From: Candidatus Berkelbacteria bacterium
GTDB taxonomy: Bacteria; Patescibacteriota; UBA1384; DTJR01
NCBI GenBank assembly: GCA_026397175.1
Contig: JAPLVK010000023.1
Location: 1 to 55,637, forward strand
Length of the DNA stretch: 55,637 nt
Direction: 5' to 3'
Shown here one piece after another: positions 1 to 45,550 of this stretch; positions within the stretch are counted from its first letter, which is position 1; every line of letters begins with the position of its first letter. Position numbers and translations under genes: made by a program. The notes beneath the pieces were generated by a model. It made no database searches and was not told the DNA's origin. It saw nothing but the letters and a program-made list of their open reading frames with translations.

Positions 1-306
1 CAAGAAAATCCCGAAAGGATTCGGGATTTTATAAAAAAGATTGGTTCGAACTTCCGCATTGCCGACCGCACTTTGGTTTTGGATTTCAAAAATGCCTTTA
101 AAATTGCGGAAAAATACCAGGCCGAGGCGCGAAGCGCCGAGGCAACATCTTTCAATTTCGCTGAATGTAAAACTTGGCGGAGAGGGTGGGATTCGAACCC
201 ACGGATCCCTTGCGAGATCAACACATTAGCAGTGTGCTGCTATCGACCACTCAGCCACCTCTCCACTGGATACCTAATTTTCAAAAAATACACGTATCGA
301 GCGTAG
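1..306 (+). CDS. 3'-partial ORF entering from the left edge, product unknown. The frame stays open antisense across tRNA-Ser.
   Basis: Frame 1 is open from nt 1 to the TAG at 304-306. The first ~55 codons (QENPERIRDFIKKIGSNFRIADRTLVLDFKNAFKIAEKYQ...) look protein-like. The tail is simply the complement of the tRNA. Confidence 0.3.
   Translation, partial: QENPERIRDFIKKIGSNFRIADRTLVLDFKNAFKIAEKYQAEARSAEATSFNFAECKTWRRGWDSNPRIPCEINTLAVCCYRPLSHLSTGYLIFKKYTYRA
175..264 (-). tRNA. tRNA-Ser (anticodon GCU), class II with long variable arm, CCA encoded
   Basis: The reverse complement folds as GGAGAGG/CCTCTCC acceptor, GCTG-AGTGGTCGA-TAGC D arm, GCACA-CTGCTAA-TGTGT anticodon arm, a GATC...GATC variable arm, GTGGG-TTCGAAT-CCCAC T arm, then G-CCA. 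Confidence 0.92.
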
Positions 307-408
307 CTCGAATTAGCAGTCGTTTCAAGTTCCGCCCTTGAAACCTATCGACCACTCAGCCCAAGGCTGATCGGCCTAGGGCCGAAGCCACTCTCGCACT
401 CTTCCACA
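283..408 (-). ncRNA. Structured leader or sRNA upstream of tRNA-Ser containing tRNA-Ser-derived fragments (pseudo-tRNA)
   Basis: 17-nt identity to the tRNA D arm (345-361 vs 240-256) and 9-nt identity to the anticodon loop (312-320 vs 225-233). Three hairpins. TCGAGC-GTA-GCTCGA (297-311) followed by a T-run on the minus strand. Confidence 0.4.
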
Positions 409-414
409 GGAGTA

Positions 415-442
415 ATTATAACAAAATACTCAAAAAACTCAA
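415..442 (-). promoter_or_regulatory. sigma70-like promoter, TTGAGT-16 nt-TATAAT
   Basis: Minus-strand -35 at 442-437 and -10 at 420-415. It fires toward the pseudo-tRNA leader and tRNA-Ser. Confidence 0.55.
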
Positions 443-480
443 CCAATTGTCTTTGGGCAAAGTCCTATCTCTAACCAGCT

Positions 481-513
481 AAGCTCCCCGACGGATATAC
501 CGCCGGGGAGCTT
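481..513 (-). terminator. Hairpin after the amidohydrolase stop (weak T-tract)
   Basis: AAGCTCCCCG-13 nt-CGGGGAGCTT, 27 nt downstream of the stop at 540. Confidence 0.35.
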
Positions 514-539
514 GGAAGTTAGGACAAGGGGGGTCGTGA

Positions 540-1574
540 TCAGATGGCGGCAAAGACGCGTTGGTCTTCGGCGAGAGAACGGCGAGCGAACTCCCGATCA
601 ATGTTGTTGAGTTCTTCGCCGTGAGCGATCTTGTTCCAGATGTCCTCCTCGTAGAACCGAGTATCGTTGTAGACGCGCTCGAGTTCTCGGGCCAGGTCCA
701 CCCGCCGAGGGAGAGGGACGAAGATGTCTTCGATGTTGTCGGTGCCGAGGCGTAAAGGAACGCCGGCGACGATCAACTCGCGGACTCGGGCAATCGAGTT
801 GTGGGTCGGCGCACTGATCGGTCGTAGTTGGCGCATTGAGATGGCGGCGTGTGGGCAAACGATCACCCCGATTTTGTACTTGACAAGGTTCTCGACGAGG
901 CGACTGAATCTTGTCTCGTCGTACGCTGACGGTGAGATGACATGGACTGCCCAGACGGTCGGACCGCTGATCCCTTCGATCTTTGGTGCACCGAGCCAGC
1001 GCACCGCATCGATCAGCGTTTCGGTGCCACACTCCTGCGGATCGTTGGCCTGATCCACATGGATTTGCATCGGCAGGTGGTTTTCGTGGGCGATCTTAAA
1101 GAGCAGCTGGAGATGGCCGTCGAATCCGACAGTGTGTTCCGGCGCGCAGTCGCGTTCGGGCAATCCGACGAGAAACTGCGCCCGCTTAGCCGCTTCGCAA
1201 ATGAGCTCGTAGCGATCGGATCCGACTGTCTTGAACCCGAAGATCGGATAAGCGCCAACCTTCAGATCAAGTTCCGGGGCGAGTTCGGCTCGAAGCTTGA
1301 GCGCGGCGTCGAAAGCGACCAAGCCGATATCCGGCGAGGTGTCGGTGCAGGCCCAGACCTCTTTCTCGCCCGTGATCTTCTCTTCCAGAATTCCCTGCAT
1401 TCTCGCGTAGAGTTCGTCGGGCTTATACGCTGGCCCATTGTGGAGATCGCCGACGGCCTGCTGCTTGAGCGCGAGGGATGACTCCCTCACCTCTCTGACG
1501 GAACGCCCGGTGTGTTTCCAACACCCATCATCAGCGGTCCGTGCTCGATCCAAATGCACATGAGCGTCAATCAT
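540..1574 (-). CDS. Cytosine-deaminase-family (CodA-like) metal-dependent amidohydrolase, GC-rich island gene
   Basis: Motifs MIDAHVHLD (HxH), IHVDQANDPQ and GTDNIEDIFVPLP parallel CodA motifs. AGGAGG lies 8 nt before the ATG at 1574; the upstream TTG of the ORF track was rejected. Confidence 0.7.
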   Translation of the reverse strand: MIDAHVHLDRARTADDGCWKHTGRSVREVRESSLALKQQAVGDLHNGPAYKPDELYARMQGILEEKITGEKEVWACTDTSPDIGLVAFDAALKLRAELAPELDLKVGAYPIFGFKTVGSDRYELICEAAKRAQFLVGLPERDCAPEHTVGFDGHLQLLFKIAHENHLPMQIHVDQANDPQECGTETLIDAVRWLGAPKIEGISGPTVWAVHVISPSAYDETRFSRLVENLVKYKIGVIVCPHAAISMRQLRPISAPTHNSIARVRELIVAGVPLRLGTDNIEDIFVPLPRRVDLARELERVYNDTRFYEEDIWNKIAHGEELNNIDREFARRSLAEDQRVFAAI

Positions 1575-1610
1575 TTTGACTTTCCTCCTGTCCCTGGATT
1601 TCAAGGTACA

Positions 1611-1680
1611 AAAAAAATAACCCTGACGCCTAAATCATAGAACCGCTCCTTTCATTTGGCTTGGCGTGTGGTTATTTTTT
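1611..1680 (-). terminator. Long hairpin plus T8 after rplS
   Basis: On the minus strand, AAAAAATAACCACACGCC ... GGCGTCAGGGTTATTTTTTTT. Confidence 0.55.
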
Positions 1681-4886: not shown

Positions 4887-4916
4887 GGAAAAAAATGGTA
4901 AAAATAAGATGGTTGA

Positions 4917-5044
4917 ATAATGAATTACGAATAACGAATTACGAATGGGTTTGAAAATTAAAAATTGCAAAATTGAATGCCCGGAGGGCGAACCCGCATC
5001 CTGCGGGTGAGAAAATTGCAAAATTGAAAATTGTAAAATTATAA
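4917..5044. repeat. Composite AT-rich repeat: a family A arm, then family D arms (gaaaattg words) around a GC-rich hairpin core
   Basis: aatgaattacgaataacgaattacgaatggg, then gaaaattaaaaattgcaaaattgaa-[ACCCGCA-TCC-TGCGGGT]-gaaaattgcaaaattgaaaattgtaaaatt. Ends 1 nt before the dnaE ATG. Confidence 0.75.
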
Positions 5045-5045: not shown

Positions 5046-8000
5046 ATGAATTTCACCCATCTCCACCTCCACACCCACTATTCTCTCCTTGACGGGCTAG
5101 GGAAACCCGAGGAGTTTATTTTAAGTGCCAAAGAAATGGGCATGAACTCGCTAGCTATCACCGATCACGGCGCCATGTACGGCGCAATCGAGTTTTACAA
5201 GGCAGCTAAAGCGGCGCAGATTAAACCGATTATCGGCGTAGAGGTCTATGTCGCGCCCCGATCATTAACTGACAAAATTTCAAAACTTGATTCTAGCCCG
5301 TACCACTTGATTTTGCTCGCTAAAAATCTTGAGGGTTATCAAAATTTGATGAAGCTAACCAGCATCGCTCATCTTGAGGGATTTTATTATAAGCCGCGCG
5401 TTGATAAAAAAATCCTTAAAAAATATTCAAACGGACTAATCGCATCTTCCGCTTGTCTTGCGGGGGAAATTCCACGCGCGCTTTTATCAAACGACGAGGA
5501 GATGGCGCAAAAAGCGCTTCTCGAATACCAAGAAATATTTGGCAAAGACAATTTCTATTTGGAGCTTCAAGATCATCCCGACATTAAAGATCAACAAATC
5601 GCCAACGAAGCCATCAAAAAATTGGCCCAAAAAACCCAAACGCCGCTCGTTGTAAGCTGTGATTCCCATTATGTAAAAAAAGAAGACCGTGAGGCGCATG
5701 ATGTTTTGGTCTGTGTGCAAACCGGCAAAACGGTTGATGATCCAAAAAGAATGACTTATGACGGCGATTTTTCGCTTCGCGACCCCAAAGAGCTGGCGGA
5801 GGTCTTTAAGGATGTTCCCGAAGCGCTAGAAAACACGCAAAAAATCGCCGATCAATGCAATCTCGAAATTAAATTTGGCGAAAACCTATTGCCCGATTTC
5901 CCGATTCCTTCAAAAAAATCGCCGGACGAATTTTTAAAAGACATTTGTCTGGTTGGTCTCAAAGAAAGATATCCCAAAGCAGACGAGAAAGAACAAAAAC
6001 AGTTGCTTGAGCGGCTTAATTACGAACTTTCGGTTATTAAAAAAATGGGTTTTGCCGATTACTTTTTGATTGTGGCCGATTATGTAAAATGGGCCAAAGA
6101 AAACGCAATTATGGTCGGTCCGGGCAGGGGCTCGGCCGCCGGTGCATTGGTTACATATTTGGCCTACATCACGGATGTTGATCCGATTCGCTACGGGCTG
6201 CTGTTTGAGAGATTCCTAAATCCCGATCGAATTGAAATGCCTGATATTGATCTTGATTTTGCCGATCATCGGCGCGCGCAGGTTTTACAATATGTTTCAA
6301 ATAAATATGGCGCAGATAAAGTGGCCGGCATTATTACTTTTGGAACAATGGCTGCGCGCGCCGCCATTCGCGACACCGGCCGCGCGCTGGGGATTTTGTA
6401 TGCGCAAGTAGATGCTATCGCCAAAATTGTCCCGCCGCCCCTGCAGGGCAAACACATTCCGCTATCAAAATCGATCGCAGAAAATAACGAGCTCAAAGAT
6501 GTTTATAAGCGCGATCCGCAAGCCAAGCGACTCTTGGATATGGCGACAAAGCTCGAAGGAACGGTGCGCCACGCCAGCCAGCACGCCAGCGCTTTCGTCA
6601 TAACTCGCGACGAGCTGCCTTGTTATGTGCCGCTCCAGAGCGCGCAAAAAGAAGGTGTTAGCCAAATCACCCAATATTCGATGTATCCGGTGGCCGAGCT
6701 CGGACTTTTAAAAATGGACTTTTTGGGACTTTCAAACCTGACCACGATCGAGCGAGCGCTTGAAATCATCGAAGCCGTCAATGGTGATAAAATTGATATT
6801 TTTAATCTTCCGCTTGATGACAAAAAATCATTTGCACTTTTAGGAAAAGCACAAACAGTCGGCGTGTTTCAATTTGAATCAAGCGGAATGCAACGCTACA
6901 TCAAGGAACTCAAACCGACTTCGATTGACGATATTGCCGTCATGGTGGCGCTTTATCGGCCCGGCCCGATGCAGTTTATTGATTCATTTATTGCGCGAAA
7001 AAATGGTCGGGAAAAAATTACATTTCCGCACGAGATGACAAAATCCGCGCTCGAGGTAACTTACGGCATTCCGGTTTATCAGGAGCAGGTGATGCAGATT
7101 TCAAAAGATATGGCCAATTTTACCGGCGGCGAGGCGGACAAACTTCGCAAAGCGATGGGCAAAAAAATCGCCAAATTGATGGCGGAAATGAAAGTTAAAT
7201 TTATTTCTGGCGCCGAAAAAAACGGTGTTTCGACCAAACAGGCCAACGAGGTTTTCGCCATGCTCGAGGATTTCGCCGCCTATGGCTTTAATAAGTCGCA
7301 CGCCGTTTGCTACGCCATGATTGCTTATCAAACCGCATATCTTAAGGCCAATTATCCCGAGTGTTTTATGGCCGCTTTGATGACCTCGGATTTAAACGAC
7401 ATTGACCGCATTGCTATTGAAATTGAGGAATGCGAGCGGATGAAAATTGATGTCTTGCCGCCCGATGTTAACGAGTCGTTTGTAGATTTTGGTGTGGTCA
7501 AGGAGTCGGGAAATATTCGCTTTGGACTGGGCGCGATCAAGGGGATTGGTGAAAATCCGGCCAGAATTATCGTCAAGGAAAGAAAGAAAAATGGGCCGTT
7601 TAAATCACTCGAGGATTTTGTGGATCGGATGATAAATTGCGAGGTGGACGGGGTCGGGGAGCGCATGATTTTAAATAAGAAGATCCTGGAGTCGCTGGCC
7701 AAATCAGGCGCGCTTGATAATTTTGCCGAGCGCGCGCAAATTTTAGCCGGCATGGAAATTATCACCAAGCGAATTCAAGACGCCTCAAAAGCCAAAAAAA
7801 CGGCGCAAATCGGGCTTTTTGGCGAAGTGCTGGCGGCCGATATTGAAATCGGGGGACTTGATTTGCCGCAAGTTGAACCGGCCACACAAGCGCAACGGCT
7901 CGCCTTCGAAAAAGAACATCTTGGCATTTATATTTCGGAGCATCCTTTGCGCGAAGTGGGCGAGATGCTAAAGCAGGCGGTTTCCCATCAAATCGGGGCG

Positions 8001-8636
8001 ATTGATTTGAATATGGACGGCAAAAGGGTGAAAATCGGGGGAATTTTGACCACGATTAAAAAAATCAACACCCGTTCCGGTCAGCCGATGGTTTTTGCAG
8101 GCATTGAGGATTTATCCGGAAAATCGGAGGTCTTGGTTTTTCCGAAATTGCTGCAGGAAAACGCCGAACTTTGGCAAAACGATAATATTTTGTTGGTTGA
8201 AGGAAAAATTTCGACCAAAGACAATCAAATTAAAATTCTAGCCGACAAGGCGGAAAAATTTGATGCGGAAAAAATTCAAAAAAATATGTCCAATGTACCA
8301 CAACACATGGTAACGGTTTCGGATGACGATGAAGTTGTCGAGATTGATTTATCCGATGAACCGGAGGCAAAAGTTGAAGAAGAAGTATTAAACGAAAAAT
8401 TCGCAAAAAACGAGTTATGTTTTGAAGATAACGGAGAGTTTAAAGTGATTTTGCCGAAGGGGACAAGCAAAGAAAAATTGGTTGAACTCAAAGAAATTTT
8501 CGAAAAATTCCCCGGGGAGTTGCCGGTGATCTTATATTACAAAAAAAATGGCAACTTCGACTCGGCAAGAACTAAAGTGCAAGTTAGTTCTGTAAAAGAG
8601 TTATTTGAGGAGATTAAGAAAGTTCTCGAGAAATAG
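5046..8636 (+). CDS. dnaE: DNA polymerase III alpha subunit
   Basis: 1196 aa. PHP domain HLHLHTHYSLLDG, polymerase core (GFADYFLIV, GPGRGSAAGALV, PDIDLDF) and an OB-fold tail. Confidence 0.97.
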   Translation: MNFTHLHLHTHYSLLDGLGKPEEFILSAKEMGMNSLAITDHGAMYGAIEFYKAAKAAQIKPIIGVEVYVAPRSLTDKISKLDSSPYHLILLAKNLEGYQNLMKLTSIAHLEGFYYKPRVDKKILKKYSNGLIASSACLAGEIPRALLSNDEEMAQKALLEYQEIFGKDNFYLELQDHPDIKDQQIANEAIKKLAQKTQTPLVVSCDSHYVKKEDREAHDVLVCVQTGKTVDDPKRMTYDGDFSLRDPKELAEVFKDVPEALENTQKIADQCNLEIKFGENLLPDFPIPSKKSPDEFLKDICLVGLKERYPKADEKEQKQLLERLNYELSVIKKMGFADYFLIVADYVKWAKENAIMVGPGRGSAAGALVTYLAYITDVDPIRYGLLFERFLNPDRIEMPDIDLDFADHRRAQVLQYVSNKYGADKVAGIITFGTMAARAAIRDTGRALGILYAQVDAIAKIVPPPLQGKHIPLSKSIAENNELKDVYKRDPQAKRLLDMATKLEGTVRHASQHASAFVITRDELPCYVPLQSAQKEGVSQITQYSMYPVAELGLLKMDFLGLSNLTTIERALEIIEAVNGDKIDIFNLPLDDKKSFALLGKAQTVGVFQFESSGMQRYIKELKPTSIDDIAVMVALYRPGPMQFIDSFIARKNGREKITFPHEMTKSALEVTYGIPVYQEQVMQISKDMANFTGGEADKLRKAMGKKIAKLMAEMKVKFISGAEKNGVSTKQANEVFAMLEDFAAYGFNKSHAVCYAMIAYQTAYLKANYPECFMAALMTSDLNDIDRIAIEIEECERMKIDVLPPDVNESFVDFGVVKESGNIRFGLGAIKGIGENPARIIVKERKKNGPFKSLEDFVDRMINCEVDGVGERMILNKKILESLAKSGALDNFAERAQILAGMEIITKRIQDASKAKKTAQIGLFGEVLAADIEIGGLDLPQVEPATQAQRLAFEKEHLGIYISEHPLREVGEMLKQAVSHQIGAIDLNMDGKRVKIGGILTTIKKINTRSGQPMVFAGIEDLSGKSEVLVFPKLLQENAELWQNDNILLVEGKISTKDNQIKILADKAEKFDAEKIQKNMSNVPQHMVTVSDDDEVVEIDLSDEPEAKVEEEVLNEKFAKNELCFEDNGEFKVILPKGTSKEKLVELKEIFEKFPGELPVILYYKKNGNFDSARTKVQVSSVKELFEEIKKVLEK

Positions 8637-8642
8637 AAGCAG

Positions 8643-8716
8643 CGAATTACGAATAACGAATTATGAATTATGAATGGGAATTCATTCTTAATTCGTAATT
8701 CATGATTCATAATTCG
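8643..8716. repeat. Family A AT-rich imperfect palindrome (gaattaYgaat / attcRtaattc words)
   Basis: Left arm cgaattacgaataacgaattatgaattatgaatggg pairs with right arm aattcattcttaattcgtaattcatgattcataattcg. A 33-nt stretch is identical to 38677-38709. Confidence 0.85.
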
Positions 8717-8725
8717 ATTTTGCAT

Positions 8726-8754
8726 TTGACTTGCCTTTTAAAAAGTGCTATTAA
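8726..8754 (+). promoter_or_regulatory. Promoter TTGACT-17 nt-TATTAA
   Basis: -35 at 8726-8731 and -10 at 8749-8754. Confidence 0.6.
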
Positions 8755-8761
8755 TAAAATA

Positions 8762-9621
8762 CTTGTAAAAGATCGTTGAAAAAAGGGAAGGGAGTGACCG
8801 CCTTTGGGCTAGTTAAGTCCGGCAAGCATGCGAGGGTGATCGGTTAGTCGACTTCCGCATAGTTGCTTTTTAGGGTTGATCCCTAGACCCAACTAGTGCA
8901 AAGCCATTCGGACCATAGAGTTCCCCGGTCATCTGTACCGTGCATCAGCGCGTTTGTCGCAACCAGCCGTTGTTCGCAGTAAACGCAGGACGGGACTAGA
9001 GGAAAAACCTGAAGGCAGTAAACTGTGCCGAGCTTCATCGGGACACCGATGAGGGCCGGCACGCCATCATCTTCATTGCGGGTTTTACTCGGACGAGCTT
9101 ATTCGGTTTGCAGAGGCGCCCTGCTGTGGGACATGTGGAAAAGAGTGTCGGTCTGCTGAACGCGGCGGATGTTAGCGCAGTGAATGCGGGGCGTCTCTGC
9201 TTTTGAATCTTCCCCAGTGGGGAAGGCCTGCTCCATCGCGGTCGCACCGGTCAAAGCTGCTCTGCTGCTTCCCCCGGCTGCAGAGCAGCCCAATCACAAC
9301 GCTCTCTGCCCTTGGGAGAGCTTGTCGCAAAGAGATCTTATCCCGCCTGATGGCGGGATAGGAAACACAACCAGGCCGGACCGCTCTCTCGCTCCCCTCT
9401 GCCGTACCCGCAAGCGCGAAGGGGGCGGTCCGGCCGCTATGACTCCTTTCCCGCTTGACAAAGCGGGAGATGTCGGATACAATGTACCCAGAAACCCTCC
9501 CTTTGACCCGTCGGGAGCGATCTTGTTCCACGGAAGATCGTCCCGACGAGACCATTCCTTGCCCCCCCTTGGGGGCAATTATCACCGGCCGGTTCGCACA
9601 GAACCGGCCGGCTTTCGTTTT
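8762..9621 (+). ncRNA. Large GC-rich structured RNA candidate (about 860 nt), class unknown
   Basis: Promoter and terminator bracket the unit. There is no protein-like ORF. Many perfect helices are present (9340-9359, 9374-9384/9425-9435, 9449-9468, 9514-9544, 9561-9576). Confidence 0.6.
9585..9621 (+). terminator. Intrinsic terminator
   Basis: CCGGCCGG - 11-nt loop - CCGGCCGG, followed by CTTTCGTTTT. Confidence 0.75.
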
Positions 9622-9630
9622 AAAATAGAA

Positions 9631-9701
9631 TCTAGAATTATGAATAATGAATTATGAATGGGAGTAGATTCGTAATTCGTAATTCAAAATTCGTAATTCA
9701 C
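9631..9701. repeat. Family A AT-rich palindrome
   Basis: gaattatgaataatgaattatgaatggg ... attcgtaattcgtaattcaaaattcgtaattc. Confidence 0.8.
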
Positions 9702-9783: not shown

Positions 9784-11550
9784 CTATTTGACTTGAAATC
9801 CTCCCCACTCCACCATCGAGAAACCGGATCGCTCAAAGTGTGTCGTAGGGTTATAGGACGACTCAAGTTTTTCACTCATTGGTTTAAAAACCAGCCGGAT
9901 CCTATACACGCTGTCCGGTGTCGGATTGATATCAACCGGCTCAATTTTGTCAATTTCCGATCGTTCCATTAATCCAACCTGATAATATTTTGCCGCGGGT
10001 AATTTTTTAGACCAGAATTCGGCCATCTCGCGCGATTCCTTATCGTTTAGCGATAATTTTTTGCCCAAATCATTTAGCTCGTTTGATAAATTTTTTCCGT
10101 CCAAAACGACATAATTTTGGGGCATCTCGGGAATTGGTAACATGGCTTCGTAAAATAAATATGGATATTTTTTGAGCCCCGAGTAGATATTTCCGGATGG
10201 CATTGCCAAAACACTCCAACCGCTACTTTTATATTTTGGATCCGAAATGCTAATCCACCCAACCGGCGGATTTAATTTAACTTTAACCAAAGTTGGTTTT
10301 GTGGGATATAAATATATCGCTGGCTTTGATTCCGGCGTAAAGCCGCACCACGGGTCGGAAACAACCGGTTTTGACTCAAATTCAACCGCCGAAATTCCCA
10401 AGTTTGTATTTTTACCATCCGCCACGGGCAAGACCTTCGTTATCTTAGAGGCGATTTGCGGCGCATAAAGATATTTTTGGCCGTCTTTTTCAATTTGCAG
10501 CACGGGAGAACCTTCCGCATCGCCAGCGCCAACCTTCATGATTATCAACGACATCGCTTGGACATTTGACAAAAAGTCAGGCGATTTAATGTTGAAAACA
10601 TCGGGTTTGAGGTTTAATTGCTGATTATTTGAGATGTGGTTTTGTTCAAGATTGTTGCCGATTTTTCTAAAACTCGCCGTAAGCGGATTATTCTCATTGG
10701 TAAAATCAAACATTTTCTCGATATCATCTTTTTTGATTGAAGGATTTAGACCAATTATTTCTTGAAGTTTATCTTGCGTGATCGGGTCCAAAGTATCGGG
10801 CGGCATATTTTTGCGCCTTTGCTCCGACGCTTTTTTGATATCCTCGACAGATCCCCCAAGTTGTACTGCTTCTGCGACTAAATTCGGGTCGTCAACCGGT
10901 TGCAATTGTCCGCAATCGCCCAAAACATCTGTCAGGGAAAGTTGTGTTTTGTAGTTTCTGTCGGATTTTGTATCAAGAAGCGACAGCGAATTTTGCTGCA
11001 GGTAAACATCAAAGAAAACCACACCGTTTCCTTTTGTCTGCGGATTGGTTTTGGCTAAAAAGACGACATCGGCCGGTTCGGATTTGGGGGTCGAAACAAT
11101 GTTAATTTCTCGGAAATTTTTTCTTAAAATTTTAACCGGCGGCATATAGTCAGGGCTTTTGGTAGTCGCATCAAATTCTTCGCCCAGACAATCGGCCCGA
11201 TATGGTTTCAGAGCGTCATCTGTGTTGCACCTTACTCCTTCCGAGACCTTGCCCAAAGATATTGGGACTTCGCTTTGGATTAAAACATAAGTCAACGAAG
11301 TGTTTTTGTTTTTGTCGCTTTTATGGGTAAAATCAATCTGAACGGTTTTGGTTAAATCGGCTTGCACCGGCCAGCTTTGCCCCGTGTTACCCGCTGCCGA
11401 AGTCAGCGCTCCTTGGCTTGATGAACCGGTGCTTCCCGATGAGCCGCCACCCAAAGTCGTTGACCCGATTGGTGTACAGCCGGTTAACGCAATGCAAACC
11501 AAAATAGCCACAACTCCGAATAAAAACTTTTTGCCAATGTTTTTATTCAC
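9784..11550 (-). CDS. Large lipoprotein, function unknown
   Basis: A GTG start at 11550 gives [24 protein letters not shown]|C (lipobox). It overlaps the Clp ATPase stop (GTGAATAA). The longer ORF-track start lies inside the upstream gene. Confidence 0.7.
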   Translation of the reverse strand: MNKNIGKKFLFGVVAILVCIALTGCTPIGSTTLGGGSSGSTGSSSQGALTSAAGNTGQSWPVQADLTKTVQIDFTHKSDKNKNTSLTYVLIQSEVPISLGKVSEGVRCNTDDALKPYRADCLGEEFDATTKSPDYMPPVKILRKNFREINIVSTPKSEPADVVFLAKTNPQTKGNGVVFFDVYLQQNSLSLLDTKSDRNYKTQLSLTDVLGDCGQLQPVDDPNLVAEAVQLGGSVEDIKKASEQRRKNMPPDTLDPITQDKLQEIIGLNPSIKKDDIEKMFDFTNENNPLTASFRKIGNNLEQNHISNNQQLNLKPDVFNIKSPDFLSNVQAMSLIIMKVGAGDAEGSPVLQIEKDGQKYLYAPQIASKITKVLPVADGKNTNLGISAVEFESKPVVSDPWCGFTPESKPAIYLYPTKPTLVKVKLNPPVGWISISDPKYKSSGWSVLAMPSGNIYSGLKKYPYLFYEAMLPIPEMPQNYVVLDGKNLSNELNDLGKKLSLNDKESREMAEFWSKKLPAAKYYQVGLMERSEIDKIEPVDINPTPDSVYRIRLVFKPMSEKLESSYNPTTHFERSGFSMVEWGGFQVK

Positions 11551-13945
11551 TTGTTGCCTGTTCGGCCATTTTATCATTTGTCTCGTCTTGTTTTGTTTCA
11601 TCCCTAAGGAAATTTTGCTCCGTTTGATCTGTTGGTTTTTTCTCTTCCGGTTTTGGCGGTTGTGGTGCCGGATTTGCCTTTTCGTTATTATAAAAAATAA
11701 ATTTTTGATCCTTGTCCAAATCAACCAAAAGCGATTGATTTTCTTTGACGGTTTCTTTAATCATGAGCAATGATAGGGGATTTTCGATTTCGCGCTGAAT
11801 GATTCTGCGAAGCGGTCTGGCGCCGTAAACAGCGTCGTAGCCAATTTCGGCCAGCTTGAGTTTGGCTCGCTCTGAAATTTCAAGCGTAATTTTTTGCTCT
11901 TTCAGCAAGTCCTCGATATCTTTAATCATTACCGCGGCGATCTGGGCCATATCTTGTGGCCGAAGACCCCTGAAAGTTACGACTTCGTCAAATCGGTTTA
12001 TAAATTCCGGCCTAAATGTTTCAAGCAGTACATTCATTAGTTGCTTTTGCAGGTTTGGATCATCAATGTTTGATTTTTGAATCAGCTCTGTCCCGACATT
12101 TGAAGTGCAGATAATAATCGTGTTTTTAAAGTCAACCGTGCGGCCTTTATTGTCGGTTAAGCGCCCGTCATCTAGAATTTGCAGGAAAATGTTAAAAACA
12201 TCTTTGTGGGCTTTTTCGATTTCGTCAAATAAGACCACGGAATATGGGTTTTTCCTAACCGCTTCGGTCAGCTGCCCGCCTTCTTCGTAGCCGACATATC
12301 CCGGAGGCGCGCCGATCATTCTGGCGGTTGAGTTTTTCTCCATATATTCGCTCATATCAATGCGAACCATTTTATCTTCTTTACCGAACAAAACCTCGGC
12401 GAGGGTCTTGGCGAGCTGCGTTTTTCCAACGCCGGTTGGCCCCATAAAAATAAATGATCCGACCGGGCGTTTCGGGTTTTTTAGTCCCGCTCGATTTCGT
12501 CTGATGGCTTCGCAAATCACCTTGACCGCATTTTCTTGGTCAACCAAGCGCTTGTGAATTAAGTCCTCTAAATTCAACAAAACCGACGATTCGTCTTGGT
12601 CTAACTTTGTGATCGGAATGCCGGAGGTGGCCGAAACGATTTCTTTGACCAAATTAACCGTTACATCTCTGGGGTTAATATTTTTGAGCTCAATTTTTGA
12701 GCCGGCCTCGTCAATAACATCAATCGCTTTATCCGGCAGAAATCTGTCCGAAATATATCGCTCCGACAATTTAACGGCCGCTTCAACCGACTCTTCGGGA
12801 ATTTTAACCTTGTGGTGCTCTTCGTATTTTGATTTGATGCCGTTTAAAATCAAAATTGCTTGCTCGATTGTCGGCTCGTTGACCATCACTCGTTGGAATC
12901 TCCGCTCAAACGCGGCGTCTTTTTCGATATATTGGCGAAATTCCTTGATGGTGGTGGCGCCGATGGTTTGCATTTCACCTCGAGCCAAAGACGGTTTTAG
13001 GATATTGGCGGCGTCCAGTGAACCCTCGCCGGCTCCTGCGCCCATAATCGTATGTAACTCGTCAATAAACAAGATAATCGAGCCGGCCGCCGCCTTGATT
13101 TCTTTAATCACTTTTTCCAGTCGCTCTTCGAACTCGCCGCGGTGTTTGGCTCCGGCCACCATTAAGCTCAAATCGAGAATTAAAACCCGTTTGTTTTTTA
13201 GCTGATCCGGCACCTGCCCCGAAGCAATTTTTTGGGCGAGGCCTTCGACAATGGCCGTTTTTCCAACGCCCGCCTCGCCGATTAAAACCGGATTATTTTT
13301 GGTTCGCCTCGTTAGAATTTCCATCACCCGCTCGATTTCGGCGTCTCGGGCCAAAACCGGATCAAGCTGGCCCGCCTTGGCTTTGGCGGTTAAATCAATA
13401 GTGTATGTTTCAAGTTCCGATTTGGTCTGATGACCAGCATCGTTTTGGCCTTCCGTTTTTTTGTCTTCTTCGCCCGAACCCTCTTCGGTTTCCGATTCGG
13501 ATTTTTTAGCGAGTTCCTCGGCTGCTTTTTTGATTTTGTCCTCGTCAATTTTATTTTCTTGCAGCACTTTTGAGGCAACGGTTTTGTTGTCTTTGATTAT
13601 TTGCAAAATTACATGGTGGGGTTCGAGATAGTCCTTTTTTTCACTCTTGGCGATTTCGAGCGCTTTTTGAAAAAGTTCCATCGAGACGGAGGAAAATTCA
13701 CCTTGCCCGTGAAAATCGCCCCGCGGGACATCTTTAAAGACCTCGTCTTGAATTTTCTTGGCGTCCATTCCTGTGTGCTCAATTAAATTAAACCCGGATG
13801 GCGCTTCTAAAATCGCCAAGAAAATATGATCCGGATCAATATACGGAGAATTAAAAAGTTTGGCTTTTTCGACCGCGACTTTTAAGATCTCTAAAAGATC
13901 GGGTGAAAAATTAGTAAAAATATCGTCCGGATGCGTGATTAACAC
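11543..13945 (-). CDS. Class-I AAA+ Clp ATPase (ClpA/ClpC-type, two AAA modules, no long M-domain)
   Basis: Clp_N repeats, Walker A motifs GEAGVGKT and GPTGVGKT, and [12 protein letters not shown] start with a GGAGGGG SD. Confidence 0.9.
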
Positions 13946-16588: not shown

Positions 16589-16677
16589 ATTAAACAATTG
16601 AACAATTAAACAATTTGTCAATTTTAGGATTTTGAATTCTTAATTGATTAATTGCCCAATTGAATAATTGATTAATT
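16589..16677. repeat. AT-rich word repeat, family C (aattgtttaattg / caattg words)
   Basis: taaacaattgaacaattaaacaatttgtcaatt ... ttaattgattaattgcccaattgaataattgattaat. Related to 40941-40983 and 46050-46121. Confidence 0.75.
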
Positions 16678-16682: not shown

Positions 16683-16710
16683 TTGACAGGTTTCGAAAAT
16701 GTTTTATAAT
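16683..16710 (+). promoter_or_regulatory. Consensus promoter TTGACA-16 nt-TATAAT
   Basis: -35 at 16683-16688 and -10 at 16705-16710. Confidence 0.7.
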
Positions 16711-16716
16711 TAAACT

Positions 16717-17282
16717 AGCAGTAACAGCTGTAGTTCTTTGACTAAGACGAAAAGAAGGGAGGAAAGCCGAAGAAGAAATGAAACCGATGTGGATGTCTCT
16801 GGCCGCGTGAAGCATTTGGGGCTCATAGGTCGTAAAACAAGGCCGCATCTCGGGTCGCAAGAGTTGTCCCAACTGCATGAAGAGCTAGAAGCAAAGTTGC
16901 ACCGACGAAGAACCCAGCCCTGCTTGCAGAGCTGGGAAGAAAGGGCGTATGCGCATATGAACCGGTCGGCAGTCGTTCTGATGAGTGTGGAGGGCGTTGT
17001 CAGCTAGCTCTCGAATCGTAGCTTGCTGGCGAAACCTCTAAACCTGATCCGGCCTTGCCGGATCCAACGACTTCAACGGACAAGCGACGAAACGGCGCCC
17101 TCGGTGAGGCGCGCCGTTTCTGCACTAATCACGCATCGCCGTACCTTCCATCCATCCCACATATCGCTTTACCCGCAACTCTTTTTTTGTCTTCGCAACC
17201 CTGTCTTACATCCTGCAGCGCAGCGACATCGGGTTGTACAAGTGGGGGCGTTCCGAGCCATTCGGACGCCCCCCATTTTTTT
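16717..17282 (+). ncRNA. GC-rich structured RNA candidate (about 566 nt), class unknown
   Basis: Consensus promoter and a strong terminator. The only ORF is a TTG-started Arg/Glu-rich frame. Helices at 16913-16918/16931-16936, 17046-17064 and 17089-17098/17111-17120. Confidence 0.6.
17244..17282 (+). terminator. Intrinsic terminator
   Basis: GGGGGCGTTCCGA-loop-TTCGGACGCCCCC, followed by CATTTTTTT. Confidence 0.8.
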
Positions 17283-26956: not shown

Positions 26957-27994
26957 TTATTGTATTACTGCGGTTTGGGCGACGGGTTTATTAGGTTTCT
27001 GTTCCGTGTGATAGCCGATGGAATAAGAGTCAACAGAGGGGCCAATAGTTGGAGGACAAGGAATTTCTGAACCCGGACCATCGAAGCAATGTCGCAAATC
27101 GTTACCGTTATCACTCCTGGAAAGAGTCGTTTCTACTTGTAGATACCGGTATTTTGTTTCGCCGGAGCGAGAAGTAACTAATCCAGAAATATCTAAAGCA
27201 TTTCCCGATGTTGGAGTTTGTACTGCCGACCAAGGATCAGTCCAATCAGTTCCATTTACCGATGATCTGAATCTATATGTTACTGCAGTATTAGCCGGAA
27301 CAGTTTCAGTTGGAGTAAATGTCTGCCACTGCCAGAAGTTTGTGCCGCCGTCGATTTGAGTTGCGGCAGTGGTGTGGGTACCAGGAGCAGTCGGGGGATA
27401 AAATTCTATCTCGTCAAAAAACAATGATGTAGAATACGCAGGAGTTACGCTAATTCGGACATATCTGTAAGTCATGTTGGCTGAGCCGCATCCGCCACAG
27501 TGCCAAAGACCGTCAGGTCCACCCGGAAAATGCTCATAAATTGCCGTCCAATCCGTTTCATTTGTGGATCCATAAATACTTACATCTCCTATACTTGATC
27601 CAACAAATTCATAGAAATATACACAACTGAGCTGACGATTTCCGCCAAAATCAATTTGCCAGTAGAATGGATCGCCTGTTGTTCCCATAAAAGCAGTGCT
27701 AAGATTTGCATCAACAAGGTTTAATTTAGTTGAATCAAACTTAGAGGCCGTAACTGTCATTCCCGAGGTGTCAATCTTGGGGGGAGGCAGTTGGGAAATG
27801 TTTAACGAACCCGATGACGATTCAATATTGCTTGAAACTCCAGCACTCCAATCCGAAGAGGACGATAATATTTGCGATGCGTTGCTAGCATGTACGGCAA
27901 TCTTTTGTTTAGATTTCCAAAAATATTGAACACCAGGAACAAAAGCAACAACCAAAACTATGATTATTACAAATCTTAAAACTTTATTTTTCAC
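26957..27994 (-). CDS. Secreted discoidin (F5/8 type C)-domain protein
   Basis: N-terminal TM/signal sequence. FYWQIDFGGNRQLSCVYF...YRYVRISVTP...FFDEIEFY, followed by a beta-rich domain. GTG start. Confidence 0.7.
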   Translation of the reverse strand: MKNKVLRFVIIIVLVVAFVPGVQYFWKSKQKIAVHASNASQILSSSSDWSAGVSSNIESSSGSLNISQLPPPKIDTSGMTVTASKFDSTKLNLVDANLSTAFMGTTGDPFYWQIDFGGNRQLSCVYFYEFVGSSIGDVSIYGSTNETDWTAIYEHFPGGPDGLWHCGGCGSANMTYRYVRISVTPAYSTSLFFDEIEFYPPTAPGTHTTAATQIDGGTNFWQWQTFTPTETVPANTAVTYRFRSSVNGTDWTDPWSAVQTPTSGNALDISGLVTSRSGETKYRYLQVETTLSRSDNGNDLRHCFDGPGSEIPCPPTIGPSVDSYSIGYHTEQKPNKPVAQTAVIQ

Positions 27995-28014
27995 AATTTT
28001 ATAATAACACTTTG

Positions 28015-28055
28015 GAGTAAAATAATCAGGGGCTCTCGAACGTGTCGAGAGCCCC
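28015..28055 (-). terminator. Intrinsic terminator of the GC-rich gene 28079-28645
   Basis: GGGGCTCTCGA-5 nt-TCGAGAGCCCC, followed by a T-rich run on the minus strand. Confidence 0.7.
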
Positions 28056-28078
28056 GGATTGACGATCAGCCACTCAGG

Positions 28079-28645
28079 TTACTTCGCGTAGAACATCCGC
28101 AGGGACAGCTTGATCTTGCCCTGCTCGGGAAGCTCTACGGTCAGCGAGCCGAATACGGCTGCTCGCTGGAACATCTCGTCTCCGTTGCCCTGCAGTGCGC
28201 GGATCACGACCCCGGTCGTATCCCCTGGTTCCAGCAGCACCCTCCCCTGATCACGCTTGAGGACAATAAGATCGGGGAAGGTTCTATCAAAGCAGGTAGA
28301 CGCGGGAGGCTCGTACTTGAAACACCACGCGAGGCCAGTGTAAGCATGCTGCGGTATCGCACGCCTGGAGACTCCGCCGTTGAATCGCAGGGTTCCTAGA
28401 TCAAGTACCGCAGACCTTGATCTTAACCCCTTGCGTTCTTCCTCCTCCACGGTGGATACGGCCGAGTCGTGCTTCTGGTCGTCGTTAAGGTTCTCATACC
28501 CCTCCGGCAGACGACCAGCGTGCGACCTCTCAAAAGCCTGAACAACCGGGTCGCTTGTGAGCGGTGGCGGCTTGGGGGTGGTCAACGCCAAACAGACCAA
28601 GGCCGCCGCGACTACGATCAGGATTGCAATCGTGAGTTTAGACAT
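28079..28645 (-). CDS. Membrane-anchored or secreted hypothetical protein (GC-rich island)
   Basis: ATG at 28645 with AAGGAG 9 nt upstream. MSKLTIAILIVVAAALVCLALT signal anchor. Confidence 0.7.
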   Translation of the reverse strand: MSKLTIAILIVVAAALVCLALTTPKPPPLTSDPVVQAFERSHAGRLPEGYENLNDDQKHDSAVSTVEEEERKGLRSRSAVLDLGTLRFNGGVSRRAIPQHAYTGLAWCFKYEPPASTCFDRTFPDLIVLKRDQGRVLLEPGDTTGVVIRALQGNGDEMFQRAAVFGSLTVELPEQGKIKLSLRMFYAK

Positions 28646-28832
28646 TGGGACAACTCCTTGTGCCGCGGTTAGCGGTGTGGAATAACTGCTACTCGTTAGC
28701 TGCACTCAAGCCGGCCACGAGATTTCGTACTATCTCTGTACTATCAAGGAACTACGCGAACTGCTTAGGTTTCGCCGGCTCGATGGCCGCTGAAACCCAA
28801 ACCCCGTTGAACGGGGCACAGCAGATCGGACA

Positions 28833-29565: not shown

Positions 29566-29666
29566 AATCGAATTACGAAGTACGAATAATGAATTACGAA
29601 TAATCGAGATTTTTCGTAATTCACCCATGATTCGTTATTCATAATTCTAAATTCGATCCCCAGATT
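29566..29666. repeat. Family A AT-rich palindrome
   Basis: aatcgaattacgaagtacgaataatgaattacgaataatcg ... cgtaattcacccatgattcgttattcataattctaaattcgat. Confidence 0.8.
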
Positions 29667-38674: not shown

Positions 38675-38752
38675 CCGAATTACGAATAACGAATTATGAA
38701 TTATGAATTAATACTTATCCATTCATCATTCAAAATTCATAATTCAAGATTC
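38675..38752. repeat. Family A AT-rich palindrome
   Basis: cgaattacgaataacgaattatgaattatgaatt ... attcatcattcaaaattcataattcaagattc. Confidence 0.85.
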
Positions 38753-38816
38753 TATCTTCAATGAGGGCTTGATGGCCCCGCTTTTTAGGGCGGGGCCATG
38801 TGTGGTTGGGGAGCGG

Positions 38817-39212
38817 CTAAGGCAGGTGCTGTTTGCACCAATCGTGGGCCGCTCGGATGACATCGTACCAAGGAGAGTCGTGTGGTACTTCGTAGGCGAT
38901 ACCACCATCGAAGTAGAAGAGGCGGCGATCGCCGTGGAGTATGAGCTCGGCGGTTTTGTTGACGATCACACTCTCGAGCAACTCGCGAATCGTGATCGTC
39001 TTCGGTTCGGCGTGAGGGAGGGTGATGCTGGGGCCTCGCTTTGCGTTTATACCCAGAAGCACGCAAAGGTCGAGCGGGAAGATCTCGCAATGCGGCGCGC
39101 GTCCCAGGGTTTTCTCGAGTCCCTTTTCCCCGCCAAACTCGCCTTTGAGCCACTCGCCAAGCTGCCTCGCCGTTGAAATTACCGGCTTCGTCTTGATCTG
39201 ATCGAGGGCCAT
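38817..39212 (-). CDS. Hypothetical protein (single-gene GC-rich island)
   Basis: 131 aa. AAAGGAGGG lies 7 nt before the ATG. Has its own consensus promoter. Confidence 0.7.
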   Translation of the reverse strand: MALDQIKTKPVISTARQLGEWLKGEFGGEKGLEKTLGRAPHCEIFPLDLCVLLGINAKRGPSITLPHAEPKTITIRELLESVIVNKTAELILHGDRRLFYFDGGIAYEVPHDSPWYDVIRAAHDWCKQHLP

Positions 39213-39254
39213 TTCGCACCCTCCTTTCTTAAGATGTCAAACAAAACTATCGTC

Positions 39255-39283
39255 ATTGTAGGGTCTTATTTTCAGCTTGTCAA
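39255..39283 (-). promoter_or_regulatory. Promoter TTGACA-17 nt-TACAAT
   Basis: Minus-strand -35 at 39283-39278 and -10 at 39260-39255. Confidence 0.65.
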
Positions 39284-39357: not shown

Positions 39358-39436
39358 GTGAATTATGAATCTTGAATTACGAATTATGATTTATTTGATT
39401 TTATTCATAATTCATTATTCGTAATTCATAATTCGA
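39358..39436. repeat. Family A AT-rich palindrome
   Basis: gtgaattatgaatcttgaattacgaattatgat ... attcataattcattattcgtaattcataattcg. Confidence 0.85.
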
Positions 39437-39451: not shown

Positions 39452-39988
39452 ATGCTCTTTCTAATTTTTCTCGATTTTATCTGGTCTGTCTCGGCTTTTA
39501 TCTACGATTGGTCGAAATTTGCCACAATTCCGTGGTTTGTTCTGCCGTTTGTTGTTATTTGCCCGATTTATCCTTTGCTTTTGGCAATCGTGTGGATTAA
39601 AATTTTCAAGAAAAAAAATCCAAATCAATATCTGTTTACCTTCGCCACAATTCCAAGCATGATTTTTGGGTTGTTGGCCCTGATTTATTATCCGGTTGCG
39701 ATGTTTTATCAGGGATTTTCTTTAAATGCCTTTGGCCAGATTTTTTGGGTTTTGTTTTATTCTATCCAGGCCTGGTATCTTTTTTTCAAATATAAAACAT
39801 CAACCCTGCCGATTATTTTAGTGCTTTTTTATCTTTCGATTAAATTTTTTATTGATTATAAATATCTGACCTTCGGCTATCTTGATTTTTCAAATATTCC
39901 GCGAGTTCTAATTTTATATTTTACGATTATCGCTGTATCGGTTGCTTTTTGTCTTGGTACTCTTGCAATTTTTAGGAGAAAAAGCTAG
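39452..39988 (+). CDS. Polytopic membrane protein (DUF1405-like)
   Basis: 178 aa with about 5 TM segments. The family assignment is from memory of the motif pattern only. Confidence 0.65.
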   Translation: MLFLIFLDFIWSVSAFIYDWSKFATIPWFVLPFVVICPIYPLLLAIVWIKIFKKKNPNQYLFTFATIPSMIFGLLALIYYPVAMFYQGFSLNAFGQIFWVLFYSIQAWYLFFKYKTSTLPIILVLFYLSIKFFIDYKYLTFGYLDFSNIPRVLILYFTIIAVSVAFCLGTLAIFRRKS

Positions 39989-40031
39989 AATTCGATCAGT
40001 ATTGTACATTATGTTCAGGAGATGATGCCTC

Positions 40032-40388
40032 GTGGCACTAAAACTGTCTTTCGAAGAACTCTGCAAGATGGGTCTTGTGGGGCGCAAAGTCGTGTGCCGG
40101 ATTGGGCGACGGGAGTATCGCTTCTGGGTAGGCGATCAAAGGGTTTCGAAACGGGTAGGGCTCGTGCTAGAGTGCGACCCGAGGCGGAAAACACCCGAGG
40201 CAGACCGCCGGGTTGGCAAAAGACGGTTTCGGCTGCTAGAGCCGCACAAGCGTCACGGCGCCTTCTTTGTCCATGGCGACTTCGTGATTGAGCGTCGGGG
40301 CAATCTGATTGTCTGCGTTCCTCCTGCGAGGAAGAGGGGGAGCCGGAAGAAGGCACGCCATGTCGTCGTCATCGTCCTTCGGGATTAG
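40032..40388 (+). CDS. Small basic hypothetical protein (GC-rich island)
   Basis: GTG start 10 nt after AGGAG. It is the only protein-like frame. Followed by the terminator at 40412-40464. Confidence 0.45.
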   Translation: MALKLSFEELCKMGLVGRKVVCRIGRREYRFWVGDQRVSKRVGLVLECDPRRKTPEADRRVGKRRFRLLEPHKRHGAFFVHGDFVIERRGNLIVCVPPARKRGSRKKARHVVVIVLRD

Positions 40389-40411
40389 TCCGGGGGACAT
40401 CTCTTTCATAG

Positions 40412-40464
40412 GCCGCGTTTCCAAGCTCACACATTGTGAAATTGGGACGCGGCTCTTTCTTTTT
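40412..40464 (+). terminator. Intrinsic terminator
   Basis: GCCGCGT-28 nt-ACGCGGC, followed by TCTTTCTTTTT. Confidence 0.55.
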
Positions 40465-40470
40465 AAAAAT

Positions 40471-40848
40471 TTAGTTTTGCTCGCTAACGCGTGGTGCCAA
40501 GCGGATGATTACCTTAAACTTTCGCTGCTCGCCGTTAGCATCTTTGATTTCGTCGGTCTGATTTTTGGCATAATATTCCATCAACTCTACGGACAAAATT
40601 TCTCTTAAAGTATTTATTTCGTCTAAATTTGCTTTGATGTCCTCGACTAATTTCTGATTGCCCTCTTCGGACAAAAGTTCATCTTTGAGCCGTTTTTTTC
40701 TTTTGTTCAGCTCTTTGGATTGCTGCGCAACTTTTTGATATTCCAAATCGTTCTCCAAAACCGACTTAATCATTTCTTTTGATTTGCGGTTTTCTTCTTC
40801 TAAGTCCTCGACAATTTTAATTCTTTCTCTAACCACCGATAAATCCAT
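40471..40848 (-). CDS. Coiled-coil hypothetical protein
   Basis: 125 aa, Lys/Glu-rich with a heptad-like pattern. Confidence 0.6.
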   Translation of the reverse strand: MDLSVVRERIKIVEDLEEENRKSKEMIKSVLENDLEYQKVAQQSKELNKRKKRLKDELLSEEGNQKLVEDIKANLDEINTLREILSVELMEYYAKNQTDEIKDANGEQRKFKVIIRLAPRVSEQN

Positions 40849-41014: not shown

Positions 41015-41071
41015 CAAGGGCCAAGAATTGAAGGAAAATTCTTGAGAACATTTCTAGAAAGGGCAAAAACG

Positions 41072-41437: not shown

Positions 41438-41461
41438 CTCGACTGCTCCCGTCCCAAATCT

Positions 41462-41503: not shown

Positions 41504-41514
41504 AATTTAGCAAC

Positions 41515-45525: not shown

Positions 45526-45550
45526 GAGCTGACCCAAAAAGTTGGGGAGT

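Follow-up and report, generated by a model that had tools for sequence, protein, structure and literature searches.

Directly downstream of dnaE, in a 55,637-nucleotide (nt) stretch of DNA from a Candidatus Berkelbacteria bacterium (contig JAPLVK010000023.1; hereafter, the window), lies a GC-rich block (8760-9621) that is crowded with hairpins and contains no protein-like reading frame. What does such a locus specify? A sequence-only reading of the window had proposed one stand-alone RNA of ~860 nt, comparable to the large ornate RNAs GOLLD, ROOL, and OLE. We find that the block is real as a GC-rich, non-coding, hairpin-packed unit, but that it is not a conserved giant RNA. Most likely, it is a non-coding RNA locus. 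The interpretation we prefer, and hold tentatively, is that it is an orphan, lineage-specific locus at a hypervariable site downstream of dnaE, whose structured RNA acts in trans as a base-pairing small RNA (sRNA) or as a decoy.

Transcription signals, coding potential and predicted fold

Promoter-like sequences and an intrinsic terminator accompany the block (Table 1). The upstream promoter (P1) and the strong terminator that the sequence-only reading had described are both present. P1 escaped our consensus promoter scan, which lists an overlapping, weaker TTGCCT-18-TAAAAT in its place, because the scan demands a T at position 6 of the -10 element and P1 has an A there. The scan also returned an internal promoter (P2), which had gone unnoticed and is a better consensus match than P1; its -35 hexamer falls within the loop region of the hairpin at 9449-9468. 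In the terminator hairpin (9585-9611), 11 pairs, nine of which are G-C, close a loop of 5 nt, and the tail CTTTCGTTTT follows. Also overlooked was a helix resembling a terminator, with a U-run, at 9186-9208. Judged from its sequence, it may serve as a partial internal terminator that ends some of the P1 transcripts.

These signals are the ones expected of an sRNA gene: a sigma-70-type promoter, a Rho-independent terminator, an intergenic position, and no open reading frame (ORF). We infer that transcription would start both at P1 and at the stronger, internal P2, and that the single intrinsic terminator would end both transcripts. This would yield a long RNA of ~860 nt together with a nested sRNA of ~130 nt that has three hairpins. 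From the original proposal of a stand-alone structured RNA, the non-coding character, the dedicated promoter and terminator, and a structure favored on the sense strand are retained; its unity is not, as P2 splits off the ~130-nt sRNA.

Table 1. Positions of the transcription signals, predicted RNA modules and flanking repeats of the block in the window
Feature	Position	Strand	Description
Promoter-like P1	8726-8754	+	TTGACT, 17-nt spacer, TATTAA; TG one base upstream of the -10; read from the sequence
Internal promoter P2	9455-9483	+	TTGACA-17-TACAAT, 11 of 12 consensus positions; from the promoter scan
Intrinsic terminator	9585-9621	+	CCGGCCGGUUC-GCACA-GAACCGGCCGG, then CUUUCGUUUU
Terminator-like helix, 3′ arm	9186-9208	+	15-bp helix (9110-9124 with 9186-9200), then UUUUGAAU
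Upstream hairpin string	8760-9454	+	~700 nt; ~12 mostly local, GC-clamped stem-loops with short G-poor linkers
Stem-loops of the upstream string (examples)	8857-8899, 9011-9068, 9110-9200, 9209-9225, 9256-9289, 9296-9325, 9336-9363, 9374-9435, 9447-9470	+	predicted fold
Recurrent module	9025-9071	+	hairpin GUGCCGAGCUUCAUCGG-GACA-CCGAUGAGGGCCGGCAC, then G-CCAUCAUC; the sole module of the block that recurs in relatives
Nested sRNA (predicted)	9490-9621	+	~130 nt, three hairpins; z -6.6, clean centroid structure
Left AT-rich palindrome	8641-8718	.	CGAATTA x 4.7, then inverted ATTCATA x 4.6; begins 5 nt past the dnaE stop
Right AT-rich heptamer palindrome	9633-9700	.	direct repeat of the left palindrome

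As the sequence-only reading had stated, the block is more GC-rich than its surroundings (0.57 over 8845-9651 versus 0.424 for the whole window) and has no protein-like frame. The period-3 power of its GC signal is 2.0, compared with 7.5-57 in six GC-rich genes of the window, and all 300-nt sub-windows of the block stay under the 95% shuffle level. Neither strand of the block contains an ORF of at least 10 codons led by a Shine-Dalgarno (SD) sequence. Two long frames do exist, at 9184-9657 (plus strand) and 9172-9585 (minus strand), but they are rich in Pro, Arg, Gly, and Ser and have no Pfam match. A protein search with the 157-amino acid (aa) plus-strand frame found no relative. An exhaustive HMMER search with the 137-aa minus-strand frame gave one match, to a repetitive surface protein with 24-30% identity per repeat, which we regard as an artefact of composition or repeats and not as meaningful. 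The marks of a protein gene or pseudogene (codon periodicity, a start led by a ribosome-binding site, and homologues) were thus not found in the block. Small ORFs occur in some relatives' islands at the corresponding site, and a TTG-initiated 23-codon frame lies near the 5′ end of the block, at 8777. However, given the missing periodicity and SD-led frames, and long frames that run across hairpins and the terminator, it is extremely unlikely that the block encodes one or more small proteins.

Folding predictions set the block apart from shuffled sequence. The minimum free energy of the sense strand is -392 kcal/mol (z = -8.0 versus shuffles), 70 kcal/mol beyond the shuffle mean; for the antisense strand, the z-score is -6.6 and the excess 48 kcal/mol. 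The sense strand is 22.7 kcal/mol more stable than the antisense strand, while the shuffle means of the two strands differ by only 3.5 kcal/mol. The five helices named in the sequence-only reading are all real and lie where it placed them. The block holds five perfect GC-rich hairpins of at least 7 bp, whereas 200 shuffles gave 0.16 on average and no more than 2. This is a third of the 15 such hairpins in the 55.6-kb window and ~30 times the shuffle density.

The predicted architecture is simple. When pairs were limited to at most 200 nt, the minimum free energy was -374 kcal/mol, compared with -392 kcal/mol without restriction, so that ~95% of the energy is local. The RNA is therefore essentially a string of ~15 local hairpins joined by short linkers. 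Local, perfect hairpins account for almost all of the fold, and irregular junctions are few. Linkers are poor in G (14%, versus 37% in stems), and the hairpin loops include UGAU, GACA, CCUU, AGU, and GCACA. We found no direct or tandem repeats inside the block, such as a guide array of the CRISPR or TIGR type would contain.

The site downstream of dnaE in related bacteria

In the window, dnaE (5046-8636, plus strand; the product is a Pfam-typical DnaE) directly precedes the block, and a convergent 646-aa ORF (9784-11724, minus strand) follows it. The context is chromosomal, with genes for ribosomal proteins L19 and L27, DnaE, a ClpC/ClpB-like ATPase, and an HU-like protein. Among 5.8 billion sequences, the closest DnaE proteins are 69-77% identical, so this bacterium of the candidate phyla radiation (CPR) has no close sequenced relative; the named DnaE relatives carry the labels Candidatus Berkelbacteria or Patescibacteria. 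An exact look-up of the window's DnaE returned no record. We fetched ~35 loci around DnaE relatives (given L numbers below), and homologue searches with blastn and nhmmer covered 61 fetched loci.

The usual order in relatives is dnaE, a variable spacer, a ~130-aa gene (minus strand), an HU-like gene (minus strand), and dnaX. In the window, the spacer carries an insertion comprising the 646-aa ORF, the Clp-like gene, and an 839-aa ORF. Elsewhere, the spacer is empty (L001, L040, L031, L035, L056, L059), ~150 nt long (L032 and L026), ~200 nt long (L053), or made of 400-1000 nt of GC-rich DNA (L002, L003, L004, L028, L029, L039, L041, L052, L055, L057), or it contains two tandem units (L054, L058, L060). 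Nearly all spacer units have a near-consensus sigma-70 promoter and a terminator of the stem-plus-UUUCGUUUU type.

Against this background, we compared the nested sRNA with the relatives' units. Its predicted order is a single-stranded 5′ end of 19 nt that contains CCCUCCC (AGAAACCCUCCCUUUGACC), hairpins at 9509-9548 and 9559-9578, a UUAUCA linker, the terminator, and a U-rich tail. This layout, the promoter type, and the position match those of the ~150-nt unit that lies downstream of dnaE in L032 and L026, and P2 aligns with the promoter of that mini-unit. Both have an outer stem of the GUCGGG...CCCGAC type and a linker of the ACGAGA type. Because the internal P2 transcript matches the L032/L026 unit in these respects, we read the locus as a composite. 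Only the nested 3′ part of the block resembles the unit of the nearest relatives, whose DnaE is 76% identical. Since the module stands alone in those relatives, it is probably the older occupant of the site. The ~700-nt string of hairpins that P1 would drive, and that precedes the sRNA module, would then be a lineage-specific accretion of stem-loops.

For this upstream body, searches with blastn, nhmmer, and Smith-Waterman alignment against shuffles found no homologue, and plasmid and phage collections contained no relative of the block. The conservation among relatives that a giant RNA class implies was not borne out: units at the site differ entirely in length and sequence or are absent, and their bodies cannot be aligned with the block or, across clades, with one another. 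An early candidate for an ~800-nt homologue, L029, which has GGUAAGUCCGG and a similar 3′ hairpin, was rejected; it contains a 55-aa SD-led ORF, and its 43% identity to the block is no more than we would expect by chance.

Sense-strand structure is among the features that the units share. ORF-free islands of relatives fold far beyond shuffles (z of about -19 for L002, -12 for L036, and -8 for L054 unit b), while GC-rich coding controls mostly have z-scores of 0 to -2, with one at -5.7; all these values are rough, being based on 15 shuffles and truncated sequences. We had set out to count G-U pairs against A-C mismatches, but strict stems gave too few mismatches, and we compared strand energies in place of this count. 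The sense strand is more stable in 14 of 16 islands (Wilcoxon p 1.5e-4), and G-U pairs number 308 on the sense strand versus 195 on the antisense strand.

In one sub-clade unit, compensatory changes preserve the helices: in unit b of L054, L058, and L060, 21 of 85 predicted pairs show such changes among the three sequences. A covariance model of their core matches only those three loci and not the window; this RNA differs from that of the block. It is ~340-480 nt long (L054 8367-8850, L058 7601-8062, L060 6750-7120), with the core GCGCACUCGUACCUU...UUUUCG..GCAGG..GUCUUGUGGGCACCGUACUGG, has no Rfam match, and is confined to one Berkelbacteria sub-clade. L061 has lost most of unit b, though it shares 90% identity with L060 in unit a.

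Other units contain SD-led small ORFs, of 55 aa in L029, 21 and 54 aa in L052, and ~52 aa in L055, and also in L039 and L028. Their positions include 5193-5360 in L029, 4468-4533 and 4723-4887 in L052, and 6988-7140 in L055, with hairpin-rich 3′ regions after them. Some are hydrophobic, such as MRKLLTLLVLALALLANVAIG and MSSWFLLAAILVLCARYV..., and they could be small membrane or toxin-like peptides.

Besides promoter, terminator, and sense-strand structure, only one feature is common to unrelated units: a hairpin followed by a short motif. The 14-mer GGCACGCCATCATC (9058-9071) is the best-conserved word of the block; allowing up to 3 mismatches, 7 of 16 other islands contain it, compared with a shuffle maximum of 3-5. 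In 6.5 kb of islands, the sense strand has eight copies of ATCATC and the antisense strand none (ATCAT, 12 versus 1), and AUCAU falls nine times in predicted linkers, where 1.1 would be expected. The motif mostly lies directly 3′ of a GC hairpin, in the forms (G)CCAUCAUC, CAAUCAUC, AAAUCAC, and UUAUCACC. This arrangement occurs in the block, at 9063-9071, 9291-9297, and 9579-9586 (n = 3), and in L002, L003, L029, L034, L054 unit a, L057, and L061; within the window, the exact 9-mer is found only in the block. That otherwise unrelated units have this motif in common suggests a common ligand or processing signal.

The module of the block, a hairpin followed by an AUCAYC-type motif, resembles helix 45 of 16S rRNA with the GAUCACC that trails it, to which the GTPase Era binds through its KH domain. 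By analogy, the modular "hairpin + (G)CCAUCAUC / AAUCACC" RNAs that are rapidly rebuilt downstream of dnaE might be multi-site decoys for a factor that binds a stem-loop plus AUCAYC. On this view, the block would be an exceptionally large member of the group and would titrate a protein of ribosome biogenesis or RNA processing. We regard this specific version as very doubtful.

The design resembles that of the sponge sRNAs of the CsrB/RsmZ family and CrcZ, which likewise have a promoter of their own and an intrinsic terminator, consist of stem-loops in a row, and bear a short, recurring single-stranded motif; in these too, modules vary freely in number and stems in sequence among lineages while the motif persists. 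Unlike in those RNAs, the motif here is (C)CAUCAUC or AAUCAC placed 3′ of hairpins, not a loop GGA or an A-rich CA motif; it is found on 3 of ~15 hairpins; and the block, at 860 nt, is about twice the length of CsrB or CrcZ. The many GGA or ANGGA sequences in loops and linkers that mark Csr/Rsm RNAs are lacking in the block, and only the architecture is analogous.

More generally, we envisage the product as a stable, trans-acting regulatory RNA whose hairpins would confer nuclease resistance. Short, G-poor single-stranded segments, namely the 5′ CCCUCCC and the hairpin-trailing motifs GCCAUCAUC, CCAAUCAC, and UUAUCACC, would contact target RNAs or an RNA-binding protein, and the number of modules would vary freely between lineages.

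Known RNA families and the RNase P lead

That the block could not be assigned to a known class by eye agrees with our database searches. With Rfam 15, at gathering and E-value thresholds and over the window, the block, and two sub-windows, no family matches the block. The models for GOLLD, ROOL, OLE, HEARO, and raiA are among those that gave no match. The only Rfam matches near the block are microRNA models on the flanking AT palindromes. The search also covered 13 relatives' loci and unit b of L058, where it returned only tRNAs and chance matches. ARAGORN and Rfam found neither transfer-messenger RNA nor tRNA in the block.

RNase P RNA was followed up because the block contains a P4-like pairing and diverged forms have been reported from CPR bacteria. 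UUAAG(U)CCGGC (8813-8823) and ACAGAAC-CG-GCCGGCUU (9598-9614) could pair as a perfectly complementary P4 of 8 bp that contains a bulged U, with the word ACAGAAC, of the type found at J2/4, beside it. Among all loci scanned, this pairing is unique to the block. In 10 of 35 circular CPR genomes, RNase P RNAs lie below Rfam thresholds and have extended helices (Lui et al., 2021, PMC8172020), and the block, like these forms, belongs to a CPR bacterium, goes unseen by Rfam at normal thresholds, and has P4-like complementarity with a bulged U and an ACAGAA word. One could suppose that the block is an RNase P RNA of this kind, much expanded and diverged.

Closer inspection argues against this identity. 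When 1151, 301, and 71 nt were searched, the RNase P models (RF00010 and RF00011), which score the conserved core CR-I to CR-V, produced nothing at E <= 10; the short searches listed other-family matches of 9.6 and 12.7 bits at E below 10. The 3′ strand of the putative P4 lies in the terminator hairpin, as the 3′ arm of its 11-bp stem, and P4 can be imposed only at a cost of 38 kcal/mol. When we threaded the canonical order P1-P2-P3 and the P5/P7-P10 cruciform by hand, no P2 could be drawn. A further word, GCAGUAAACUGUGCCGAGCUU (9015-9036), is reminiscent of the conserved region III (CR-III)/P5 region of E. coli M1 RNA. The RNase-P-like words other than P4 lie within local, perfect hairpins, and the candidates for CR-III/P5 are locked inside one of 17 bp (9025-9062). 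Moreover, orthologues would be expected for a single, essential copy, and the nearest relatives hold 150 nt or nothing at the site. We therefore rejected the RNase P assignment, which we consider highly unlikely. CCGG palindromes raise the odds of chance complementarity, and the case cautions that RNase-P-like words can appear by chance in CCGG-rich hairpins.

Alternative explanations and other elements of the window

Could the block nonetheless be a single, ornate structured RNA, the first of a new large class akin to GOLLD, ROOL, and OLE? Like these RNAs and HEARO and raiA, it falls in their size class at ~860 nt, is ORF-free, and has strong predicted structure with a markedly negative z-score; it also has its own promoter and terminator and matches no known family. 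However, it differs from them in having no covariance-model match, no conservation beyond one genome, and simple hairpins in place of multi-junctions. It is conserved in none of the ~35 related loci, in the nearest relatives the site carries no more than the ~150-nt unit, and the internal promoter splits the unit of the block. The claim of one ornate RNA is not supported, given also the ~15 local hairpins and a body without a detectable homologue at a DnaE identity of 69-77%. The lack of conservation or covariation counts against a conserved class of giant RNA, as the sequence-only reading itself had said it would, and we judge such a class improbable. The case also warns those who scan genomes that a GC-rich block dense in hairpins and free of ORFs is not necessarily a conserved giant RNA.

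The main rival takes the block to be what is left, without function or in decay, of a horizontally acquired, GC-rich cassette that has lost its ORF and kept the hairpins of its untranslated regions and terminator debris. Six other GC-rich islands of the window (424-1642, 27990-28771, 38726-39277, 39984-40477, 41027-41532, and 45442-46023) look like horizontally acquired cassettes. Their GC content is 0.54-0.57 in a 42% GC genome, and each consists of a protein gene that has a near-consensus promoter and a terminator to itself and shows strong codon periodicity. In relatives, SD-led small ORFs precede hairpin-rich 3′ regions (in L029, hairpins extend for ~430 nt behind the 55-aa ORF, and L052, L055, L039, and L028 have a similar arrangement), and the site gains and loses units fast. 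The same palindromes flank the block and the 38785-39219 cassette. In being bounded by direct copies of a ~75-nt palindromic repeat, both recall cassettes of the attC type or those formed by repetitive extragenic palindromic (REP) sequences and bacterial interspersed mosaic elements; unlike in those systems, the flanking repeats are AT-rich heptamer arrays without attC core sites, and relatives' islands mostly lack such repeats. Against decay stands the absence of any trace of a decayed frame, of a period-3 signal, and of a credible protein relative for the two frames searched. Coding DNA in decay would not be expected to reach a z-score of -8 or to hold perfect hairpins in 30-fold excess, given the z-scores of the coding controls; the sense-strand bias in stability points to selection on RNA; and two near-consensus promoters and a perfect terminator have been kept. 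We consider a decaying cassette unlikely, though it deserves more weight than any other rival.

A different possibility is that the palindromes act as DNA, as an insulator of transcription or replication between dnaE and the 646-aa ORF or as a substrate for recombination, with any RNA being incidental. The block lies between these convergent genes with direct copies of a palindromic repeat on both flanks, its antisense strand also folds well, and a loop inversion in relatives (below) shows DNA-level change. Against this stand the bias of stability and G-U pairs to the sense strand, the strand specificity of AUCAUC, and the dedicated promoters that aim into the block. This explanation seems to us rather improbable.

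Several results weigh against the reading we prefer, that of an orphan, trans-acting RNA locus. The sequence similarity of the 3′ module to the L032 unit is weak (z 2.2; 19 of 500 shuffles score equal or higher), and the body, having no homologue, offers no covariation for the RNA of the block. Units are gained, lost, and truncated among close relatives, and such rapid turnover fits dispensable or even neutral DNA. L032 and L026 are 97% identical downstream of dnaE, yet their stems are re-registered, and one hairpin loop is inverted (GGCGAA versus TTCGCC) while its stem is kept (L032 7699-7732 versus L026, alignment columns 70-104). This inversion is a signature of recombination or template switching across an inverted repeat, so DNA-level palindrome dynamics also act at the site. 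Only 3 of the ~15 hairpins carry the AUCAYC-type motif. The idea of an anti-SD seed also meets difficulties. With its 5′ CCCUCCC, two hairpins, and terminator, the nested module resembles sRNAs that target SD sequences through C-rich seeds (RoxS/FsrA, and the UCCC-motif sRNAs of Firmicutes), and the syntenic L032/L026 unit has CCCUCC near its 5′ end. However, the C-rich stretch of L026 is predicted to be internally paired, CCUCC and GGAGG are equally frequent in the islands (23 each), and SD use in this genome is partial, at about a third of the window's genes (13 of 40 mechanically assigned starts have GGAG or GAGG within 20 nt). Because of these equal counts and the partial use of SD sequences, the seed idea is weak.

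CPR bacteria have reduced genomes and are thought to have little regulation. If transcribed, the block would be among the very few candidate regulatory RNAs described for them. The wider pattern may be worth more than the single locus: a dnaE-adjacent site turns over GC-rich mini-genes in an AT-rich genome, and this turnover of structured RNAs and small ORFs equipped with promoters and terminators offers a tractable place to study the birth of RNA genes.

The palindromes that the sequence-only reading saw on both sides of the block are there; their inverted arms are made up of 7-nt tandem units, and together the two constitute an 84-nt direct repeat with 79% identity. They belong to a family of AT-rich palindromes, ~75 nt long and composed of GAATTAT/ATTCATA heptamers, with further copies at 29570-29654, 38677-38752, 39360-39434, and 42743-42821 and partial copies at 4915-4946 and 16627-16646. 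Every copy is intergenic, and pairs of them bracket both the block and the GC-rich gene at 38785-39219. Similar elements are present in L004 and L008. The family may represent bidirectional terminators or mobile, REP-like repeats; no integrase, transposase, or REP-associated tyrosine transposase was found among the genes of the window.

The six GC-rich islands were also considered as sister RNAs of the block and were rejected as protein genes. One encodes a receiver-domain protein (41072-41437; PF00072, E 1.4e-7), another has a weak Amidohydro_3 match (540-1604), and two of the six proteins have signal-peptide-like N termini. A second stand-alone GC-rich unit lies at 16683-17275, with a perfect consensus promoter (TTGACA-16-TATAAT) and a terminator (GGGGGCGTTCCGAGCCATTCGGACGCCCCCC plus a T-run). 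It has a GC content of 0.55 and a z-score of -2.8, a hairpin followed by ..CUAAUCACG, and an open frame of ~70 codons with a period-3 power of 6.7 and no obvious ribosome-binding site. It adjoins a 153-aa gene, the position where relatives have their dnaE-downstream units.

Some Berkelbacteria dnaE genes (L039, L040, and L041, with a DnaE match of ~4.7 kb) carry an intein-type insertion that is absent from the dnaE of the window; intein-type DnaE proteins include P0011, P0037, and P0039 (1572-1580 aa, PF14890). In L055, a 445-aa reverse transcriptase (RVT_1; 50-1387, minus strand) without an equivalent in the window is encoded ~1.6 kb upstream of dnaE. Lastly, a TATAAT-like hexamer lies directly upstream of the start, with no SD sequence, at the genes beginning at 5046 (dnaE), 23449, 26957, 50482, and 53945, a pattern which suggests that leaderless mRNAs are frequent in this genome.

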